Source: an uncultured Candidatus Saccharibacteria bacterium (lineage in GTDB: Bacteria > Patescibacteriota > Saccharimonadia > Saccharimonadales > Saccharimonadaceae). From it: DNA of 64,000 nt. The notes beneath the pieces were generated by a model. That model was not told the origin of the DNA and searched no databases. It saw nothing but the letters and a program-made list of their open reading frames with translations. The stretch spans positions 79,217 through 143,216 of the forward strand of contig CALKQS010000008.1 in the NCBI GenBank assembly GCA_937990725.1. Direction: 5' to 3'. Made by a program: the position numbers and the translations under genes. Of this stretch, positions 52,367-62,174 are shown piece by piece. The stretch's first letter is position 1. Each line of letters begins with the position of its first letter.

Positions 52367-52996
52367 TCATTGGCTCTGTATCTTATCCACCAACTTCGTC
52401 AGCTTCACCCCGCCGTACATCCAGTGGTCGGCGCCGCGGTATGCGCCGGAGTTGTTGACTTCGCCGCGCTGGGTATAGATCAGGCGGGTCAGGGCAGACA
52501 GGCGCCAGGTTTTGCCGCTGTAGGATACCTCGCGTGGGCCAGCTACGACGGCGGTGATGGCTGGGTCTTTGATAAAGTGGATGCTCGCGCCCTTGTCGAT
52601 ACCCTTTTTGTAAAAGCTAAAGCGCTGATCTTGCTGGTGTGCGGTGGTAACGGCCTCGAACGAGTCGGCCTTGCTGGTGGATTGAGCTGGCTTGGGGTAA
52701 ATCTGCGTACCATCAAGGGCAAGCAGCAGCCGCTGGATAAGATATTCATCAAGCGCAAAGAACTCACTCCGGCCAATGCGATGTTTGCTAAAGACTTCGT
52801 GCAGGAGCTGTTCCTTTTTGTGGTAATTATCTACCTCAATGGCGACCAGCCGCTGCAGCCCAGTGATGTTGGAGTAGCCGTTAGACTCAAGATATTGCAT
52901 GCGCGCCTCGAAGCGGTCGACGCTGGTCTTACCAATCTTGACCAAACCCTCAATAGCACTGGTCATAACATAAATCACTCCGCGCGGCTCGGACAT
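52367..52996 (-). CDS. GIY-YIG/T5orf172-type nuclease-like domain protein with a DUF4357-like C-terminus
   Basis: GVIYVMTSA..GLVKIGKTS...R...L........L..A.EV.......E..LH..F...R....SEFF resembles the T5orf172/GIY-YIG pattern. Divergent from hsdM. Confidence 0.6.
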   Translation of the reverse strand: MSEPRGVIYVMTSAIEGLVKIGKTSVDRFEARMQYLESNGYSNITGLQRLVAIEVDNYHKKEQLLHEVFSKHRIGRSEFFALDEYLIQRLLLALDGTQIYPKPAQSTSKADSFEAVTTAHQQDQRFSFYKKGIDKGASIHFIKDPAITAVVAGPREVSYSGKTWRLSALTRLIYTQRGEVNNSGAYRGADHWMYGGVKLTKLVDKIQSQ

Positions 52997-53011: not shown

Positions 53012-53084
53012 GACTGTGGGGCAGGTGAATAGCCAATGGTAGTAAAATGCTTCAGCCAGCCTCGTTAATTAGGCTTGCTTGCAG

Positions 53085-53090
53085 TATAAT
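53085..53090 (+). promoter_or_regulatory. -10 box TATAAT, 7 nt upstream of the hsdM ATG
   Basis: TATAAT, gap gaggggc, then ATG 53098. Confidence 0.45.
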
Positions 53091-53097
53091 GAGGGGC

Positions 53098-54684
53098 ATG
53101 ACAACAGGGGATAATCGTAAAGAACAAGAACGCAGCAAGCTTCACAATACTATTTGGAAAATTGCCAATGACCTGCGCGGATCAGTCGATGGATGGGACT
53201 TTAAGACGTATGTGCTAGGGTTCTTATTTTACCGGTTTATATCGGAAAATCTAGTCAATTATATTAATGCTGAAGAGCGTAAAACTGGTGTGGCTGATTT
53301 TAATTACGCTGAACTTAGCGATGATCAGGCGGAGTTTGGTCGCGAGGATACGGTAAACGACAAAGGATTTTATATTTTACCAAGCGAGCTGTTTGAAAAT
53401 GTCCGTAAGCGTGCCAAAAATGACGAAAATTTGAACGAAACGCTGAGTAAAATATTCCGTAACATTGAGCAATCGGCCAAGGGTTTTGATAGTGAGGATG
53501 ATTTCCGTGGATTATTTGACGATTTAGACGTTAATAGCAATAAGCTTGGTCCGACTGTTACCAGACGCAATGAACGATTGGTGAAATTGATGAACGCCAT
53601 CGGTGAATTAGAGCTTGGTAAGTTTGAAGACAATACAATTGACGCTTTTGGCGACGCATATGAGTATCTGATGACCATGTATGCTGGTAATGCTGGCAAA
53701 TCTGGAGGCGAGTTCTTTACGCCGCAAGAAGTGAGCGAACTTTTGGCAAAAATTACTGTTGTCGGTAAGACATCGGTAAACAAAGTGTATGACCCAGCGG
53801 CAGGCTCCGGTTCGCTACTGCTAAAGTTTGCGAAAGTTTTGGGTAAGGATAATGTCCGGCAAGGCTTTTATGGGCAAGAGATTAACATTACGACTTATAA
53901 TCTTTGCCGCATCAACATGTTCCTGCATGACATTAATTATGAAAAATTTAACATTGCTCACGGTGATACGCTGAAAGATCCGAAACACTGGGATGACGAG
54001 CCGTTTGATGCGATTGTTTCAAATCCGCCATATAGTATCAAATGGGACGGCGACAGTAATCCGACGCTCATCAACGATCCTCGCTTTAGCCCGGCTGGAG
54101 TCTTGGCACCGCGCAGTAAGGCTGATTTAGCATTCACGATGCATATGTTGAGCTGGCTGAGCGAGAGCGGCACGGCGGCGATTGTTGAGTTTCCTGGCGC
54201 GCTATATCGCGGTGGGGCTGAGGCAAAAATCCGCAAATACTTGGTAGAGAGTAATTATGTTGATGCCGTTATCCAGTTGCCACCAGACCTATTCTTTGGT
54301 ACGACAATTAGCACCTGTATCTTTGTTTTAAAAAAGAGCCGGGCGACGAATGACATATTGTTTATCGACGCTAGCGCTGAGTTTGTACGTAAAGGCAATA
54401 AAAATAAGTTGAACGAAGAAAATCGGCAGAAGATCCTGGATAGCTTTACTAACCGGCAAAATATTGATTACTTTGCGAAAGTTGCTACCTATGAAGATGT
54501 CGTCGCTAATGACTATAATCTATCAGTTAGCTCGTATGTTGAGGCTGAAGATACGCAAGAGGTGATTGATATCACTGAGCTCAATGCTGACATTGCAAAG
54601 ATCGTGGCTCGCCAGTCTGAATTGCGCACAGAAATTGATGCAATAGTTGCGGATCTCGAGAGGGATAATGATGATGCGAGATAA
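53098..54684 (+). CDS. hsdM: type I restriction-modification system DNA methyltransferase subunit HsdM
   Basis: HsdM_N region (LHNTIWKIANDLRG..DGWDFKTYVLGFLFYRFISE), AdoMet motif VYDPAAGSGSLL, and catalytic NPPYS. Confidence 0.93.
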   Translation: MTTGDNRKEQERSKLHNTIWKIANDLRGSVDGWDFKTYVLGFLFYRFISENLVNYINAEERKTGVADFNYAELSDDQAEFGREDTVNDKGFYILPSELFENVRKRAKNDENLNETLSKIFRNIEQSAKGFDSEDDFRGLFDDLDVNSNKLGPTVTRRNERLVKLMNAIGELELGKFEDNTIDAFGDAYEYLMTMYAGNAGKSGGEFFTPQEVSELLAKITVVGKTSVNKVYDPAAGSGSLLLKFAKVLGKDNVRQGFYGQEINITTYNLCRINMFLHDINYEKFNIAHGDTLKDPKHWDDEPFDAIVSNPPYSIKWDGDSNPTLINDPRFSPAGVLAPRSKADLAFTMHMLSWLSESGTAAIVEFPGALYRGGAEAKIRKYLVESNYVDAVIQLPPDLFFGTTISTCIFVLKKSRATNDILFIDASAEFVRKGNKNKLNEENRQKILDSFTNRQNIDYFAKVATYEDVVANDYNLSVSSYVEAEDTQEVIDITELNADIAKIVARQSELRTEIDAIVADLERDNDDAR

Positions 54685-55087
54685 CGGCAATATCGTTATT
54701 TATGTTGATGATAATGGTAAGCCACAAGTTGATGTTCGGCTCCAAGATGAGACGGTTTGGCTGACGCAAGCGCAGCTGGTCGATTTGTATCAGTCAAGTA
54801 AAGCGAATGTCAGCGAGCATATAAAAAATATCTTTGATGAGGGCGAGCTTGACCGGGCGGCAACTGTTCGGAAATTCCGAACAGCTCGAACTGAGGGTGA
54901 TCGTCAGGTAGAGCGTGAATTAGAATACTATAATCTCGATACTTGTAAACTTAGTACCAAGCAGACTAAAGAAAAAATGCTAGTTGGGTATCGTAAATAT
55001 AAGGCGAAAAACTTGAGTAGCGTGGAAGAGGATTATCTGGAGAATATTAAGAAAACAGCCAAGAGATTGAAAGGTGAAATAAAGTGA
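54668..55087 (+). CDS. RhuM-family protein, internally deleted (N-terminal DNA-binding part fused to the C-terminal tail)
   Basis: IVIYVDDNGKPQVDVRLQDETVWLTQAQLVDLYQSSKANVSEHIKNIFDEGEL....VRKFR matches the RhuM N-terminus. The conserved core that normally follows YYNLD is missing, leaving 139 aa against about 330 aa expected. Confidence 0.6.
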   Translation: MMMRDNGNIVIYVDDNGKPQVDVRLQDETVWLTQAQLVDLYQSSKANVSEHIKNIFDEGELDRAATVRKFRTARTEGDRQVERELEYYNLDTCKLSTKQTKEKMLVGYRKYKAKNLSSVEEDYLENIKKTAKRLKGEIK

Positions 55088-57351
55088 GTATTCAGAAAGT
55101 TAAAATTAATTTTGAGCATTGTTATGGCATTCATAGGTTATGTAGTGACTTTGACTTTTCTAAATCTAATAAGCAGCTAACTAATAAGCAGCTAACTAAT
55201 ATGCAGCTAATTTATGCTCCGAATGGCACTATGAAAACGTCTTTTGCAAAAACTTTTAAGGATATGAGTGATCCTAGAGGAAAAACTAAACCTCACGATC
55301 AGCTTGATGAAACTTTGCAATCGACTTACAAAGTTATGGTTGAAGATAACGTCGGAAACGAGCGAGATATAACACCTGATGAAATTAAGGTTATTAAGTC
55401 TTATGATGAGTCTGCGTTTAAGTCAGAAGAGGCTATCCTCACCTTACTTGCCAACAAAGAGATTCGTCAACAATATGTTGATATTTTTAAAGAATTAGAC
55501 AATGAGAAAAAATCTGCATTAAGTCCTCTGAAAAGAATTACTGGCAGTAGTAATTACGAGCAAGAAATCATTGACGCTTTTTCTGACCCAGGAACTAAAA
55601 AACGTTCGATATTTGAAGTTTTGGCTACCATAATAGACGACGTAAAACAGTCAAATAGTACCTTTGATTTTGTTTATAATCATGTATTTGATCCTAAGGG
55701 GAAAGTGCGTGACTTTCTAGATGAAAATTATGATTTATTACAAAAATATAGTGAGAAATATAATGAACTGTTATCAAGCTCACAATTCTTTTCAAACAAC
55801 GGAGAGCGAGCTTTTGGTACGATTGAAGCAGGCGCTCTTCGTGATTCAATAAAAGGTGACGAATATTTCAAATCAGGACATAAACTTTCGTTAAAAGATG
55901 AGACAGTAGTGGATAGTGCAGAGAAATTGTCGAAGGTTATCGATAATGAGATTAAAAAAGTTTTTGATAATCAAGAAATTAAGGACATTTTTGATAAAAT
56001 AGACAAAAAGCTGCAAGGAAACCAAGAACTAAGGAACTTTAAAAAAGTTATAGAAAAAGATAAAGCTCTGATTGCCATGCTGACTAATTACGATGAATTT
56101 CGTAAGGAGGTTTGGTATAGTTTTCTAAAACAAGTCGAGCCTGGGGTCAGTAGTTTAGTCGAAAACTATAATACGAAAAAGCCAGATATTGAGGCGATTG
56201 TGGCTGTAGCAAATGATTCAAAAGGCCTGTGGGATGATACGATAGAAGAGTTCAAAACTCGATTTACTAGTTTGCCATTTTCTTTTGATATTAAAGATCG
56301 GGGCGATGCAATCCTAGGTAAATCAGCACCAACCGTTATATATAAATATGGTGATAGACTAGTTGATCAAGACGTATTGACGGATAGAATTCTAAGCCAG
56401 GGAGAGCGACGTGCTTTCTATCTACTTAATGTAATATTTGATATAAAATCACGAGAAAAAGAAAACAAAGAAACTTTATTTATTATAGATGATATCGCAG
56501 ACTCGTTTGACTATAAGAATAAATACGCTATTATTCAGTACTTAAACGACTTAAATAAGAGCGAAAATTTTAAGAGTATTGTTTTAACTCATAATTTTGA
56601 TTTTTATCGTACACTGCAAGAGCGAATACTAGTAAGCGGTAAATGGGATTATTCGTTTATAGCAGAAAGAAATAATGACGAGATTAGATTATTGCCAGGC
56701 GGAGAAAAGGTAATTACCGATCCTTTTAATAAATGGCGTAATAAATGTAATAAGGATGAAAAGCTACTTGTTGCCACCATACCGTTCATACGTGAGCTAT
56801 ATAACTATCAAAAAGGGAATAAATCGCCAGAGTATTTATTGCTAACACACCTACTTCATGACAAAGAAGCTGACAATCAAAACATTATACCTGCTACCTA
56901 CGATATAAAACTGAGTGATATTGAGGGTGTCTTTGTTGATATGTTAAATGTGCAGTTTAAGTTTCCAGATAAGACTAAAAAAGTTATAGACATTATTTTT
57001 AGTGTTGCTGATCAGATTCAGCAAGAATCTCATGACGGCATATGTTTGGAGGATAAGATAGTATTAGCTATGGCGGCTCGACTCTTGGCGGAGCGAGAAA
57101 TCCTTATCCATATGGAACGTCCGTCAGATGTAAGAAAAAATCAATTTTGGGAATTCTACAATGCGTTTCGGAATCAATTTGGAAGTGATGAAACTAAAAA
57201 AGGCATATTAGACGTTCTAGAACAGGTCAATATCATCACTCCGGCAAATATCCACATTAATTCATTTATGTACGAGCCAATTATTGACGTTGGTATTGAT
57301 GAGTTAGTTTGTTTATATGAGCGAGTAAAGGCTTTGCATGAGCAAAATTGA
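55084..57351 (+). CDS. ABC/SMC-like ATPase of the AAA_13 (PrrC/RloC-like) architecture with an uncharacterised C-terminal domain
   Basis: IKINFEHCYGI plus the degenerate Walker A YAPNGTMKTS. A long K/E/D-rich helical insertion. Signature-like LSQGERRAFYL, Walker B/D-loop LFIIDDIADSFD and H-loop VLTHNFDF. About 230 aa of C-terminal region (IPFIRELYNY...LLTHLLHDKE). GTGA overlap upstream and a 14-nt overlap with hsdS. Confidence 0.6.
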   Translation: MSIQKVKINFEHCYGIHRLCSDFDFSKSNKQLTNKQLTNMQLIYAPNGTMKTSFAKTFKDMSDPRGKTKPHDQLDETLQSTYKVMVEDNVGNERDITPDEIKVIKSYDESAFKSEEAILTLLANKEIRQQYVDIFKELDNEKKSALSPLKRITGSSNYEQEIIDAFSDPGTKKRSIFEVLATIIDDVKQSNSTFDFVYNHVFDPKGKVRDFLDENYDLLQKYSEKYNELLSSSQFFSNNGERAFGTIEAGALRDSIKGDEYFKSGHKLSLKDETVVDSAEKLSKVIDNEIKKVFDNQEIKDIFDKIDKKLQGNQELRNFKKVIEKDKALIAMLTNYDEFRKEVWYSFLKQVEPGVSSLVENYNTKKPDIEAIVAVANDSKGLWDDTIEEFKTRFTSLPFSFDIKDRGDAILGKSAPTVIYKYGDRLVDQDVLTDRILSQGERRAFYLLNVIFDIKSREKENKETLFIIDDIADSFDYKNKYAIIQYLNDLNKSENFKSIVLTHNFDFYRTLQERILVSGKWDYSFIAERNNDEIRLLPGGEKVITDPFNKWRNKCNKDEKLLVATIPFIRELYNYQKGNKSPEYLLLTHLLHDKEADNQNIIPATYDIKLSDIEGVFVDMLNVQFKFPDKTKKVIDIIFSVADQIQQESHDGICLEDKIVLAMAARLLAEREILIHMERPSDVRKNQFWEFYNAFRNQFGSDETKKGILDVLEQVNIITPANIHINSFMYEPIIDVGIDELVCLYERVKALHEQN
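55168..55212 (+). repeat. 15-bp in-frame tandem repeat x3 (NKQLT NKQLT NMQLI) just upstream of the Walker A motif
   Basis: AATAAGCAGCTAACT, AATAAGCAGCTAACT, AATATGCAGCTAATT. Confidence 0.85.
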
Positions 57352-58534
57352 TGATTTGATTAAAGAGTTGTGTCCAGGGGGAGTTAAAGTAAAAGAGTTA
57401 GGTGATATTGCTGTAGTAAAAACTGGGCAAGCAATTAATAAAACGATGATTCAGAATAGCCCAGGCGATTATCCAGTCGTTAATAGTGGTAAAGATCCAC
57501 TAGGTTATTATAAGAATTATAATACAGAAGATGATCCAATAGGTGTCACTAGCCGTGGTGCTGGCGTAGGCTCCGTGACATGGTACGAGGGAAGGTATTT
57601 TCGTGGCAACTTAAATTATTCAGTTACTATAAAAGAAAAGCGAGAAATAATGAATCGCTATCTATTTCATTTACTTCTTAATAATCAAAATTCTATTCAA
57701 GCCTTGGCTACGTATGATGGAATACCAGCATTAAATGCGAGTAATCTCAAAAAGCTTTCAGTCCCTGTTCCGCCCCTCGAGGTTCAAAAAGAGATTGTGC
57801 GTGTGCTAGACTCGTTTACAGAGCTAGAAGCAGAGCTAGAAGCAGAGCTAGAAGCAGAGCTAGAAGCGAGAAAGAGGCAGTATGAATACTATCGGAATAC
57901 GCTCTTGACGTTTGAGGATGATGTGGCGTGGAAGCCGATGGGTGAGGTAGGCGAACTTATACGTGGGAACGGACTGCAGAAAAAGGATTTTACGGAAGAG
58001 GGGTTTCCGTGTATTCATTATGGGCAGATTTATACGTATTATGGCTCAGAGGCGACTAACACAAAATCGTTTACTTCCGAAGAAGTATTTCAAAAGCTTA
58101 AGAAAGCTTTACGAGGAGATGTGCTGATTGCCGGTACGAGTGAAAATATAAATGATATATGTAAACCTTGTTATTGGAATGGATATGAGACTATTGGGGT
58201 TTCTGGTGATATGTTTATTTTTAGACCAAATAAAGATATCAGCGGTAAATATTTGACGTATGTCCTACAATCAGACAATTTTATGACTTACAAGCGGAGA
58301 TATGTTACAGGCACAAAAGTTATACGTTTATCTGCCGATAGTCTTAAGAGGTTTAAAGTCCCTGTCCCATCTCCCGAAAAGCAAAAGCAAATCGTCTCAA
58401 TTCTTGATAAATTTGAAAAACTTACCAACGATATTTCTGTTGGTTTGCCGGCGGAGATTGAAGCCCGCCGCAAGCAATACAAATATTATCGCAATAAATT
58501 ATTAACATTCAAAGAGTTGGAGTGCTCAAAATGA
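57338..58534 (+). CDS. hsdS: type I restriction-modification system specificity subunit HsdS
   Basis: Two target-recognition domains separated by a central conserved helix. Duplicated conserved blocks (EIVRVLDSF...RKRQYEYYRNTLLTF and QIVSILDKF...RRKQYKYYRNKLLTF). Confidence 0.92.
   Translation: MSKIDDLIKELCPGGVKVKELGDIAVVKTGQAINKTMIQNSPGDYPVVNSGKDPLGYYKNYNTEDDPIGVTSRGAGVGSVTWYEGRYFRGNLNYSVTIKEKREIMNRYLFHLLLNNQNSIQALATYDGIPALNASNLKKLSVPVPPLEVQKEIVRVLDSFTELEAELEAELEAELEARKRQYEYYRNTLLTFEDDVAWKPMGEVGELIRGNGLQKKDFTEEGFPCIHYGQIYTYYGSEATNTKSFTSEEVFQKLKKALRGDVLIAGTSENINDICKPCYWNGYETIGVSGDMFIFRPNKDISGKYLTYVLQSDNFMTYKRRYVTGTKVIRLSADSLKRFKVPVPSPEKQKQIVSILDKFEKLTNDISVGLPAEIEARRKQYKYYRNKLLTFKELECSK
57821..57868 (+). 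repeat. 12-bp tandem repeat x4 (ELEA)4 in the central conserved region of hsdS
   Basis: GAGCTAGAAGCA x3 plus GAGCTAGAAGCG, read directly. Confidence 0.9.
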
Positions 58535-61500
58535 AATATGATGTGATTGCTGAAAATAGCGACAGCACCGTCGTCAGCGACTACGTCTCGTCGTATCAGC
58601 GGGCGACGAGCTACCAGAGCGAGGCAGAACTAGAGCAGGAATTAATTAAGCAATTGCAGGCGCAGGCGTATGAATATTTGCCGATCAAGAGTGAGAGTGA
58701 TTTGATACAGAATCTGCGCACGCAGCTGGAGAAGCTGAACGACTGCACATTTACCGATGCTGAGTGGAAGCGGTTCTTCGCGGAGCGGATCGCTAATGGC
58801 AATGAAGATATCGCCGACAAGACCTTCAAGATCCAGGAAGACAGTACGCAATTATTGCAACGCGATAACGGCGAGGTAATTAATATTCGCCTGCTAGATA
58901 AAACCAATATTCACAAGAACTGCCTGCAGGTCATCAATCAATACGAGGTGTCGAGCGCACGGGATAACCGTTACGACGTGACGCTACTGGTGAATGGTTT
59001 GCCGCTGGTGCATATCGAACTAAAAAGGCGCGGTGTGCCCTTGCAAGAAGCGTTCAACCAAATTAATCGCTACCAGCGGGATAGTTTTTGGGCGGGCAGT
59101 GGGCTGTTTGAATACGTTCAGCTATTTGTGATCAGTAACGGCACTCATACAAAATACTACAGTAATACGACGCGCTGGCAGCATATCAATGAGGCGGGTA
59201 AATCGGATTCGCGTCGCAGTAAAAAGACCAGTAATAGCTTTGAGTTTACCAGTTGGTGGGCAGATGCTAATAATCGCCCGATTACCGATTTGATAGATTT
59301 TACGGCGACCTTTTTGTCTAAGCATACGCTACTGAACGTGCTAACGAAGTATTGCGTATTTACCAGCGATAAATTATTGCTGGTGATGCGCCCATACCAG
59401 ATCGTGGCGACTGAGCGTATCTTGAATCGCATCCAGATTGCCACAAATTACAAAAAGCTTGGTACAATTGAGGCTGGCGGTTATGTGTGGCATACGACAG
59501 GTAGTGGCAAGACGTTGACGAGTTTTAAGACAGCTCAGCTGACGAGTAAGTTGGACTACGTTGATAAAGTGCTTTTTGTGGTTGATCGTAAAGACCTCGA
59601 CTACCAGACTATGAAAGAATACGACAAGTTCCAGGAGGGCGCAGCAAATAGCAATACCAGCACGCGGGTTTTGACGAGGCAACTGGGCGATCCAAATGCT
59701 AAGATTATCATTACGACCATCCAGAAGCTCGATACATTCATCAAGCGCAATCAAGGACACAAGGCTTTTGATGATCACATAGTTATCATCTTTGACGAGT
59801 GCCACCGTTCGCAATTTGGCGATATGCACCATGCTATTACTAAAAGTTTTCGTAATTATCATTTGTTTGGTTTTACTGGTACGCCGATATTTGCTGATAA
59901 TGCGTCTAGTGGCGGGCGAGTTGATCTACGGACCACCGAGCAGGCGTTTGGTGATAAACTGCATACCTACACCATAGTTGATGCGATTACTGATAAGAAT
60001 GTGTTGCCGTTTCGGATTGACTACATTCGGACGATTCGCGAGGCGGATGAGGTTGATGACCAACAGAAAGTGCGAGATATTGATCGCGAGCGGGCATTGA
60101 ATGCTCCGGAGCGTATTCGTAATGTTGTGCAATATATCCGTGATCATTTTGATCAAAAAACTATGCGCAACGCCAAATCGTACGCGTTTACGCGGCTGAT
60201 GAATGTGCATGAAGTTGCGTCGGCGCGAAACAGAGCGGCAGTTGAAGAAGCGAAAGATAAAATTCGACTAAGTGGATTTAATTCAATTTTTGCGGTGAGT
60301 TCAATTGATACGGCCAAGCTTTATTATAATGAGTTTAAGTGCCAGCAAGCTAGCCTTCCCGAGGTGAGGCGGCTAAAAATAGCTACAATTTATAGCTACG
60401 GAGCCAATGATCCTGATCTAGAAATGGACGGCATGGATGATGAAAATTCGGAACGTACTGATGGGCTTGATGTTTCGTCGCGTGATTTTCTGGAGGGCGT
60501 AATTCGTGATTATAATGCAACATTTGGCACGAATTATGATACCAGCGCTGAGCGATTTCAGAATTACTATAAAGACGTGAGTCTGCGGATGAAGAACCGA
60601 GAGATTGATGTGTTGATCGTGGTGAATATGTTTTTGACAGGGTTTGATGCCACAACGTTGAATACGCTGTGGGTTGACAAAAACTTGCGAATGCATGGGT
60701 TGATTCAGGCGTATTCGCGGACGAATCGTATCCTTAATTCAATTAAAACCTATGGAAATATCGTGACATTTCGCAATTTGGAGGATGCGACCAATAAAGC
60801 TCTAGCACTTTTTGGCGACAGAGATGCGAAGGGTGTTGTATTGCTGCGTCCTTTCCGGGATTACTATGAGGGCTATGAAGACGCTGGAAAGAAAACGCCA
60901 GGCTATGTTGATTTGATCGCGGAGCTAAAAGATAAATTTCCAGTGGGCGAGATGATTACTGGTGAGCAAGAACAAAAGGAATTTGTGAAGCTATATGGTG
61001 CAATCCTGAGGCTGAAGAATATTCTGTCTAGCTTCGACGAGTTTATTGGCCAAGAGATTTTGAGCCAGCGAGATGTGCAAGATTATCACAGCATGTACAT
61101 TGACCTCTACAATGAACTGCGGCCGAAATCTGATGAGAGTAAGGAGAATATCAATGACGATTTGGTGTTTGAGATGGAACTGATCAAGCAGGTTGAAATA
61201 AATATTGATTACATCCTGGAATTGATTCGGCAGTATCACGATAGCCATTTGAACAATAAAGAGATTTTAGTCGATATTAATAAAGCCGAGAGTTGCGTAA
61301 TAAAAAGGATTTGATCGAGCAATTTATCACCTCGCTTACCGTTGATAGTTCGGTTGACGGTGATTGGCAGGAGTTTGTAAAATCAAGGAAAATCAAAGAA
61401 CTAGACCAGATTATTGATGATGAGAAATTAGATAAAAAAGCGACGTATACGTTTGTTGAAGATGCTTTTCGCGACGGATACATACAATCAACCGGCACAG

Positions 61501-61634
61501 GTCTATCGCGGATACTGCCACCCATGTCGCGTTTTTCGCCTAGTGGAGAGCGTAGCAAAAAACGTGAAACAGTGCTGGAAAAATTGAGAGATTTCTTTGA
61601 TCGATTCTTTGATGTTTCAAGCGGGAAGTTGTGA
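58531..61634 (+). pseudogene. hsdR: type I restriction enzyme R subunit HsdR, interrupted by a 1-nt frameshift near 61284-61293
   Basis: HsdR_N nuclease region, helicase motifs (TGSGKT, DECHRSQ, TGTPIF, and the motif VI region QAYSRTNR). The frame ends at 61314 (..INKAESCVIKRI*). The +2 frame continues LRNKKDLIEQFI... to 61634, which is the normal HsdR C-terminal domain. The ATGA start overlaps the hsdS stop. Confidence 0.85.
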
Positions 61635-61682: not shown

Positions 61683-62174
61683 ATGACTTCAGCAGGAAAT
61701 GAATTTTATTGGGGTATTGTTGTTGCATCGTTGGCATACCTGGTAAAGAATTTTGTGTTTGACCAAATATTGGAATACCAGAGAGTAAAAGGAAGAATTC
61801 GGAATCGTTTGCGATACTATGCAAATGTTATTCATAGTACTAACCTAAATGAAAAGTTTATACAGGAAGTGCGGTCAGAATTTCGGCAGTTGAGCTGTGA
61901 TTTAGAAGAGAAATACTTTGCTGTTTTTATATTGGTAAGGCTAAAAGTTGTTCATTGGTTATTTGGGCTACCGTCGAAAAAAGATGTTATTGAAGCTGCC
62001 AAGAGTCTCATCTATTTATCAAATAGTGTTGGTGATAAAGGTGAAAACCGTGAAAGTCCTGTAAAACTTCAAGAGGAAGTTGATAAAGTAAAGGATCTTT
62101 TGTCAATAGGAAGTAGTGAGAATATAGTTGATAATATACGAAGATTCTTTAAAAGAAAAGGTGAAACTTCTTAA
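61683..62174 (+). CDS. hypothetical protein with an N-terminal TM helix, last AT-rich gene of the R-M island
   Basis: 163-aa ORF, about 35% GC, with no recognisable motif. It ends 2 nt before the GC-normal DUF167 gene. Confidence 0.45.
   Translation: MTSAGNEFYWGIVVASLAYLVKNFVFDQILEYQRVKGRIRNRLRYYANVIHSTNLNEKFIQEVRSEFRQLSCDLEEKYFAVFILVRLKVVHWLFGLPSKKDVIEAAKSLIYLSNSVGDKGENRESPVKLQEEVDKVKDLLSIGSSENIVDNIRRFFKRKGETS

Follow-up and report, generated by a model that had tools for sequence, protein, structure and literature searches.

The stretch of DNA analysed here (the window, 64,000 nt) lies on contig CALKQS010000008.1 of an uncultured Candidatus Saccharibacteria bacterium, and the gene under study, which encodes a 755-aa protein, is found within its type I restriction-modification (R-M) operon, at positions 55084-57351 of the forward strand. 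A first-pass annotation had described this open reading frame (ORF) as an ATPase of the ATP-binding cassette (ABC) or SMC kind with a non-canonical C-terminal domain, placed between hsdM and hsdS and recalling the PrrC/RloC-type anticodon nucleases. The ORF call bore out the gene and its length. The frame is uninterrupted, its GTG start overlaps the upstream stop and its own stop overlaps the hsdS start, within a run of overlapping, translationally coupled genes on the same strand (hsdM, a 146-aa ORF, the 755-aa gene, hsdS and hsdR). The gene is indeed flanked by hsdM and hsdS, but hsdM is not its direct neighbour because the small ORF, a RhuM remnant (54647-55087), separates them. The G+C content over the gene is 0.33-0.35 against about 0.5 in the flanks, which fits an inserted cassette. 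The identical 755-aa protein was found, with its reading frame intact, on four metagenome contigs of human oral origin and from different samples, and the genomic loci closest to the window gene were metagenome-assembled genomes (MAGs) of Candidatus Saccharibacteria. The features of the gene are the following.

55084-57351, + strand: PDC-S46 family gene, 755 aa (ORF call; PADLOC PDC-S46, E 2.4e-215; more than 4300 homologues)
55084-55407, + strand: ABC ATPase N-lobe, residues 1-108 (AlphaFold2 strands and helix; hhalign to RloC-like N-lobes 97.4%)
55166-55210, + strand: in-frame tandem repeat of three 15-nt units (NKQLTNKQLTNMQL), just upstream of the Walker A strand (Tandem Repeats Finder)
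55213-55242, + strand: deviant Walker A YAPNGTMKTS, residues 44-53 (N47, G48 and K51 invariant)
55408-56262, + strand: family-specific helical insert, residues 109-393, putative sensor or stalk (AlphaFold2 secondary structure; no CxxC)
56263-56700, + strand: ABC ATPase C-lobe, residues 394-539 (AAA_13 38.3 bits; PADLOC PrrC E 5.5e-11; hhalign 98.1%)
56701-57351, + strand: C-terminal all-alpha domain, residues 540-755, putative effector (AlphaFold2)

The PADLOC model PDC-S46 matched the window protein over its full length (715 bits, residues 4-751 on profile positions 2-718 of 719), and membership of this family is, judged by sequence, close to certain. The PDC systems are 145 phage defence candidates, nominated because their genes were found inside BREX, DISARM or type I R-M loci, and are described by their authors as untested (Payne, Hughes, Fineran, Jackson 2024, bioRxiv 10.1101/2024.01.29.577857). 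No domain analysis, mechanism or experimental test of PDC-S46 was found in the published literature. The earlier proposal of an uncharacterised defence component was therefore half right: no mechanism has been published, but the family is already recognised as a PADLOC candidate and is thus catalogued yet uncharacterised. RefSeq names its members 'hypothetical protein', 'AAA family ATPase' or 'phage infection protein'.

Close homologues number more than 4300, with a common architecture of about 735-745 aa. A profile of the C-terminal domain alone retrieved 1169 clusters at 50% identity, and the best 150 of these all displayed the same architecture, with the domain joined to the PDC-S46 ATPase, or were fragments; 229 matches of the profile were weak (E between 1e-10 and 1e-3). 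Standalone C-domain proteins were considered and rejected, the short matches grading continuously in length as is typical of contig-edge fragments. At least 442 stretches of a species-representative genome collection encode a relative, and these are scattered over Patescibacteria, Bacteroidota, Pseudomonadota, Bacillota, Chloroflexota and one Micrarchaeota MAG. Members were also found on 27 plasmids, of which 11 are conjugative, on one phage-like contig and in six complete E. coli genomes.

All motifs quoted in the first-pass annotation for the ATPase were located in the protein, namely the P-loop APNGTMKTS (residues 45-53), the signature LSQGERRAFYL (437-447), the Walker B/D-loop LFIIDDIADSFD (465-476) and the H-loop VLTHN (500-504), as were the two C-terminal motifs IPFIRELYNY (566-575) and LLTHLLHDKE (586-595). 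Only the N-terminal string had been misread, the sequence being VKINFEHCYGI and not IKINFEHCYGI. Within the C-lobe, the core motifs are the signature LSQGE (437-441), Walker B FIIDD (466-470), the D-loop SFD (474-476) and the H-loop THN (502-504), and the Walker B/D-loop is RecF-like (DDxxxSxD; NCBIfam recF match at 433-491). Invariance was scored over 76 genomes from many phyla, with homologues of 33-90% identity; N47, K51, S438, G440, E441, D469, D470, D476, H503 and N504 were unchanged in all of them, which confirms the quoted motifs as genuine. Family-wide, the Walker A motif reads YAPNGxMK[TS], both canonical glycines being replaced (by Ala, and by Met before the Lys). In this P-loop variant, K51, T/S52 and the remaining ABC motifs are invariant despite the loss of both glycines.

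The head was compared with a set of RloC-like genes from viral contigs, fetched by a P-loop DNA pattern. Their products have lengths of 750-820 aa, a central CxxC at about 260-330 in all cases and mostly RRILENY...NDGSH near the C-terminus, and their relatives are named 'wobble nucleotide-excising tRNase' by the Joint Genome Institute. These controls matched AAA_13 with 581-697 bits over profile positions 2-712 of 713, PADLOC PDC-S06, and the PrrC model up to about position 348 of 372. In four of the contigs (L090, L102, L124 and L130), whose RloC-like proteins carry the PADLOC v2 label PDC-S06, the His of a C-terminal HYxMMM motif was invariant and that of NDGSH was not. No convincing short PrrC-like protein was found among the viral-contig matches.

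For PDC-S46, the search against AAA_13 (PF13166) proposed at first pass succeeded in part. Residues 383-540 alone passed the gathering score (38.3 bits against 36; profile positions 496-592 of 713) and residues 1-109 alone gave a weak match (E 0.018), but the full-length protein against Pfam gave no AAA_13 at E<=0.01, the sole report being SMC_N with 27.3 bits (cut-off 40). The PADLOC PrrC model matched residues 384-536 only (E 5.5e-11, model positions 104-242 of 372). Compared by hhalign with the RloC-like set, the C-lobe reached 98.1% (E 7e-14) and the N-lobe 97.4% (E 1e-11), IYAPNGxMKTS of the N-lobe being matched to YGxNGSGKST. An AlphaFold2 model of the full protein, built on a 46-sequence alignment, had a mean predicted local distance difference test score (pLDDT) of 84.5. 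Its head (residues 1-108 and 394-539) superposed on those of Rad50, SMC and RecF (Foldseek probability 1.00, E 3e-6 to 1e-3), and the retron-IA ATPase and LmuB ranked lower in the same search. At the level of profile comparison, these data show the PDC-S46 head to be homologous to heads of the PrrC/RloC type (AAA_13). The ATPase motifs thus align to ABC/AAA_13 profiles, the C-lobe reaching AAA_13, and the chassis of the PrrC/RloC kind that had been suggested stands.

The description of the central region has to be revised. What had been taken for about 300 aa of K/E/D-rich coiled coil is modelled as a bundle of approximately 17 short helices, the longest of 27 residues, and not as a Rad50-like antiparallel coil; K, E and D together make up 31% of this insert (residues 109-393) and 27% of the full 755-aa sequence. 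The lack of a CxxC hook was rightly noted, no CxxC being present anywhere in the 755 residues. Just ahead of the P-loop strand, the tandem repeat at 55166-55210 lengthens a loop by about 12 residues, and the loop at residues 29-33 is modelled with a pLDDT below 50. The repeat is allele-specific: it was absent from 45 of 45 aligned homologues and present in the identical protein of the four metagenome contigs. It could represent a slippage-prone site.

Modelled alone, the C-terminal domain adopts a confident all-alpha fold (pLDDT 86.1, predicted template modelling score 0.84), and eight of its residues (R570, H592, K658, R666, E670, H724, N726 and E731) were invariant in 76 of 76 genomes. The motifs around its invariant His residues are VRN...LTSxLHxK and TPENIHLNSFMYEP. 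When 75 C-domains were searched against Pfam and PADLOC at E<=1, PDC-S46 was the sole match apart from scattered noise, with no AAA_13, PrrC or HEPN family. Among PDB chains, the full protein and a 75-sequence C-domain profile matched nothing better than a designed protein and the ribosomal protein S15 (E>=0.07), and the structure comparison that had been proposed, run with Foldseek on the C-domain model, had no match with E<0.35 in PDB or BFVD. The region is therefore neither disordered nor a match to any housekeeping or nuclease family, and its description as non-canonical holds for Pfam, PADLOC, PDB and BFVD alike.

The first-pass annotation had found the R-x3-E...H arrangement of PrrC to be lacking, and on this point it needs correction. 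An invariant R666-x3-E670 is present with an invariant H724 beyond it, 51-53 residues lying between E670 and H724, and most of the family has a second helix with R570-N-x-x-E574-Y, followed 17 residues on by the invariant H592. According to PMC2610378, the corresponding spacing is 36-52 residues in RloC and 31 in PrrC. The PrrC residues concerned are R320, E324 and H356. The family consensus at residues 570-575 (nt 56791-56808) is R-N-L-I-E-Y, whereas the window lineage has R-E-L-Y-N-Y, in which N571/E574 have become E571/N574. Since Asn and Glu have thus changed places on one face of the helix, the two residues may act together. An internal duplication of the domain, which the two R-x3-E helices could have indicated, was rejected (hhalign 0.4%).

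Such observations bear on the possibility that PDC-S46 is a highly diverged but true PrrC/RloC-type anticodon nuclease, cleaving tRNA anticodon loops either with a shrunken core made of W551, R570-x3-E574-Y and H592, or with R666-x3-E670...H724 as its triad. In addition to the homology of the ATPase lobes to those of RloC-like proteins and the Asn/Glu swap in the window lineage, the spacing of the invariant R-x3-E-x51-53-H lies at or just past the published RloC range, and hhalign, in its best but non-significant alignments, repeatedly matches PFVR570NLIE574Y...LTSxLH592xK in collinear order to NVMRRILENY...NDGSH of RloC (E 0.05-0.18), which we regard as a lead and not as evidence. The sole compact Foldseek matches of the domain, to HepT, a toxin of the HEPN superfamily with its four-helix up-down core (6m6u and 6m6w; TM 0.45-0.52, root-mean-square deviation about 5-6 Å, probability 0.3, E>2), point in the same direction. 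However, R-x3-E pairs are common in helices, neither candidate triad could be matched to that of RloC at a significant level, and the His is not preceded by a Ser. Even with the largest RloC profile, of 136 sequences, hhalign did not exceed 1.1%. AAA_13 spans the RloC tail and the PrrC model reaches into it, but neither matched any of the 75 PDC-S46 C-domains. We judge a true anticodon nuclease of this type to be unlikely. Since the ATPase lobes are homologous and the C-domains not detectably so, the chassis is shared and the effector domain is either new or diverged beyond recognition.

The genomic context of the family was examined in 82 loci, 80 from other genomes and two duplicating the window. 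Genes of the hsd type were found within 10 kb in 19 of them, and the PDC-S46 gene lay between hsd genes in 10. The predicted linkage to type I R-M loci is thus recurrent and far above chance, but it is not obligatory, and in this it resembles that of RloC rather than that of PrrC. In the other 63 loci no hsd gene was present within 10 kb. Most copies of the family are solitary genes, located in defence islands or on plasmids. No conserved partner gene was found: the 458 neighbouring genes fell into 381 clusters, of which the largest were the hsd genes, and no other ABC ATPase was found in these loci. Immediate neighbours were heterogeneous (RhuM, HpaII, DpnII, AlwI, Mrr, methylases, integrases, resolvases), and a published precedent exists in the ABC-HEPN proteins described from R-M operons with RhuM-like genes (Anantharaman et al., PMC3710099). 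In E. coli E8 (NZ_CP104526.1, 3045049-3047235, WP_096983205.1), the gene is located between a DEAD/DEAH helicase and a frameshifted remnant of BREX pglX; forty further genomes match only the first 369 nt of the gene. In Acinetobacter, a conjugative plasmid carries one copy as solitary cargo. On the Providencia plasmid NZ_CP097292.1, the copy is flanked by an antirestriction gene and, in the other direction, by an hsdM fragment with a 485-aa hypothetical gene; traM is close by, and the surroundings resemble a plasmid leading region.

This distribution argues against a general guarding of R-M as by PrrC, one of the two roles proposed earlier, because some three quarters of the relatives lie more than 10 kb from any hsd gene and no partner is conserved. 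It bears likewise on the idea that the protein, instead of being an effector, assists or regulates the type I R-M enzyme encoded around it, for example as an SMC-like sensor of DNA or of the complex that modulates restriction or modification, with a C-domain that would bind protein or DNA. The place of the window gene in a translationally coupled operon between hsdM and hsdS, the recurrent embedding in hsd loci and the SMC/Rad50/RecF-like head would all suit such a function. Yet it would account poorly for the copies remote from any hsd gene, for the solitary ones on plasmids and in BREX-type islands, or for eight invariant charged or polar C-domain residues that look catalytic rather than adhesive, and it is considered quite improbable.

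It is also conceivable that the family serves mobile elements, through plasmid or island addiction, entry exclusion or anti-defence. The plasmid copies, the Providencia copy with its antirestriction gene, its hsdM fragment and the tra genes nearby, and the integrases and resolvases among the neighbours are all in keeping with this. Most contexts, however, consist of restriction or defence genes, and we judge such a role distinctly unlikely. A second part of the same alternative, independent of the first, is that the window copy may be a decaying, inactive allele, and this can be assessed from the operon itself, whose other members are as follows.

53047-54684, + strand: hsdM, type I methyltransferase (Pfam N6_Mtase 6e-117, HsdM_N)
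54647-55087, + strand: RhuM-family remnant, 146 aa (N-domain of PADLOC PDC-S05, E 6e-35)
57338-58534, + strand: hsdS, specificity subunit (Pfam Methylase_S, two stretches)
58522-61634, + strand: hsdR, frameshifted into ORFs of 930 aa (58522-61314) and 113 aa (61293-61634) (EcoR124_C on both)

A Saccharibacteria locus about 90% identical to that of the window (88-91%; L003) carries a full 340-aa rhuM (L003:8982-10001). By comparison, the window remnant has undergone an in-frame internal deletion of about 194 codons, seen as a gap by blastn, which removed a core of about 200 aa and left the N-terminal domain and the last 45 residues or so; BLASTP aligns its residues 1-98 and 102-134 with residues 1-95 and 296-328 of the L003 protein. 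The hsdR frameshift lies near 61290-61314, the EcoR124_C profile matching the first ORF over positions 1-144 and the second over 152-260, whereas hsdR is intact in L003 (1048 aa). As two independent metagenome contigs show the same split, the operon may have lost restriction while retaining modification. Over 57373-58543, the window hsdS has no nucleotide similarity to that of L003, where an extra 361-aa gene precedes hsdR, which points to a probable swap of the specificity subunit or of a whole cassette within the operon.

The repeat insertion near the P-loop, the deleted rhuM and the split hsdR would thus agree with a decaying allele. On the other hand, the exact 755-aa protein is carried with an intact frame by the four metagenome contigs from different samples, and all its catalytic and invariant residues are kept. 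The locus thus bears signs of decay, although the 755-aa gene may itself still be working.

Beyond the R-M genes, a divergent T5orf172/GIY-YIG-like gene (52367-52996, - strand) lies upstream of hsdM; it matches PADLOC PDC-S57 (E 8e-51), so that the island holds several candidate defence genes. After hsdR, a 163-aa ORF (61683-62174) has no family match, apart from a weak HamA-like one (E 0.008). It is followed by a PF1765-like small gene and then by a DUF8128/TraG-like gene, as seen in the related locus L001, which indicates that the R-M island abuts a conjugation or type IV secretion module.

Taken together, our data are best explained if the window gene encodes a single-polypeptide defence candidate of the abortive-infection kind, based on a nucleotide-gated ABC ATPase, which reached an oral member of the Saccharibacteria by horizontal transfer and came to lie within a type I R-M operon. 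The probability of this reading is put at about 0.5; that the family as a whole is defensive appears probable. By analogy with PrrC and RloC, two ATPase heads would engage around nucleotide within a homo-oligomer, the family-specific insert might sense an infection cue (a phage protein, DNA ends or the loss of R-M integrity), and head engagement would then switch on the C-terminal domain as a toxic effector. Most likely, this effector would be a metal-independent RNase with tRNA or some other essential RNA as its target, and would cause growth arrest or abortive infection. Such an enzyme is judged the best fit because of the all-alpha fold and the constellation of Arg, His, Lys, Glu and Asn residues; we propose it tentatively, with the odds somewhat against it. 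The protein would work by itself, its embedding in R-M loci, BREX and defence islands reflecting co-transfer and layered defence and not an obligatory regulation by Hsd proteins. A bolder version would see in the C-terminal 215 residues a new effector fold or activity, neither HEPN nor PrrC-like, driven by an AAA_13-derived switch with a re-engineered P-loop (Gly to Met before Lys), in a widespread single-gene immune system whose target and trigger are unlike those of the anticodon nucleases; this we find rather doubtful.

Several observations weigh against the proposed defence function. A full-text literature search found no mention of PDC-S46 and no experiment on the family. With both Walker A glycines replaced, ATP binding is left as a prediction, and the window allele has its 12-aa repeat insertion beside the P-loop. 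No significant similarity of the C-domain to any nuclease was detected, the RloC tails giving 0.1-1.1% by hhalign (E 0.05-0.5). The best Foldseek match of the domain had an E of 0.55, the weak HepT-like matches had a probability of 0.3, and the Rx4-6H motif, which in HEPN domains stands at the start of the last core helix (PMC3710099), is absent, no Arg being present 4-6 residues ahead of any invariant His. Some plasmid copies adjoin antirestriction genes, so that a role in plasmid establishment would fit too. Finally, as the window locus has a deleted rhuM and a frameshifted hsdR, the window copy may be non-functional.

The observations of the first-pass annotation were on the whole right and its interpretation was reasonable, with partial support from our data and four corrections concerning the already catalogued family, the nature of the insert, the R-x3-E...H arrangement and the guardian role. 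If PDC-S46 works as a defence, it would count among the single-gene systems of wider distribution that still lack a mechanism. It occurs in the ultra-small Saccharibacteria, whose immunity is little known, and its C-domain, without relatives in the libraries searched, might prove to have a toxic activity of a new type or to be a strongly diverged RNase. The existence of E. coli alleles makes the hypothesis directly testable. The result for the window itself is more modest, as it holds a member of a catalogued family in a partly decayed R-M locus.

Compared with PDC-S46 as catalogued, no family-level difference was observed: the window gene is likewise a single-gene cassette inside a type I R-M operon, the criterion by which PDCs were nominated, and its allele differs by the extra 12-aa tandem-repeat loop. 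RloC is similar in length (about 740-800 aa) and has the same layout, with a split ABC head, a large helical insert and, at the C-terminus, a domain of about 200 aa. Its two ATPase lobes are homologous to those of PDC-S46 in terms of profile comparison (hhalign 98% and 97%), and R-M linkage is only occasional in RloC as well (PMC2610378). In contrast, RloC has a long Rad50-like coiled coil and a CxxC zinc hook, of which PDC-S46 has neither, and its Walker A motif is GxNGSGK[ST] where that of PDC-S46 is AxNGxMKT. The RloC controls reach AAA_13 as whole proteins, whereas the whole PDC-S46 protein falls below threshold, and the C-domains are not detectably homologous (hhalign <=1.1%, with no match of the AAA_13 or PrrC models).

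PrrC shares with the window gene its embedding in a type I hsd operon and a related ABC N-domain (PrrC model E 5.5e-11), and an invariant R-x3-E followed by a His is also present in the PDC-S46 C-domain. It differs in being about 400 aa long, without a large insert, and in lying between hsdS and hsdR, whereas the window gene, of 755 aa, lies between hsdM and hsdS. The nuclease part of the PrrC model (positions ~243-372) has no match in PDC-S46. According to PMC3458546, PrrC is always R-M linked, whereas PDC-S46 mostly is not. The heads of SMC, Rad50 and RecF, and those of other ABC-ATPase defence proteins such as LmuB, retron PtuA-like proteins and OLD, have the same fold as that of PDC-S46. 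Compared with all of these, PDC-S46 is without a long coiled coil, a kleisin or Mre11-type partner and a separate effector gene, and its C-terminal domain is unique.

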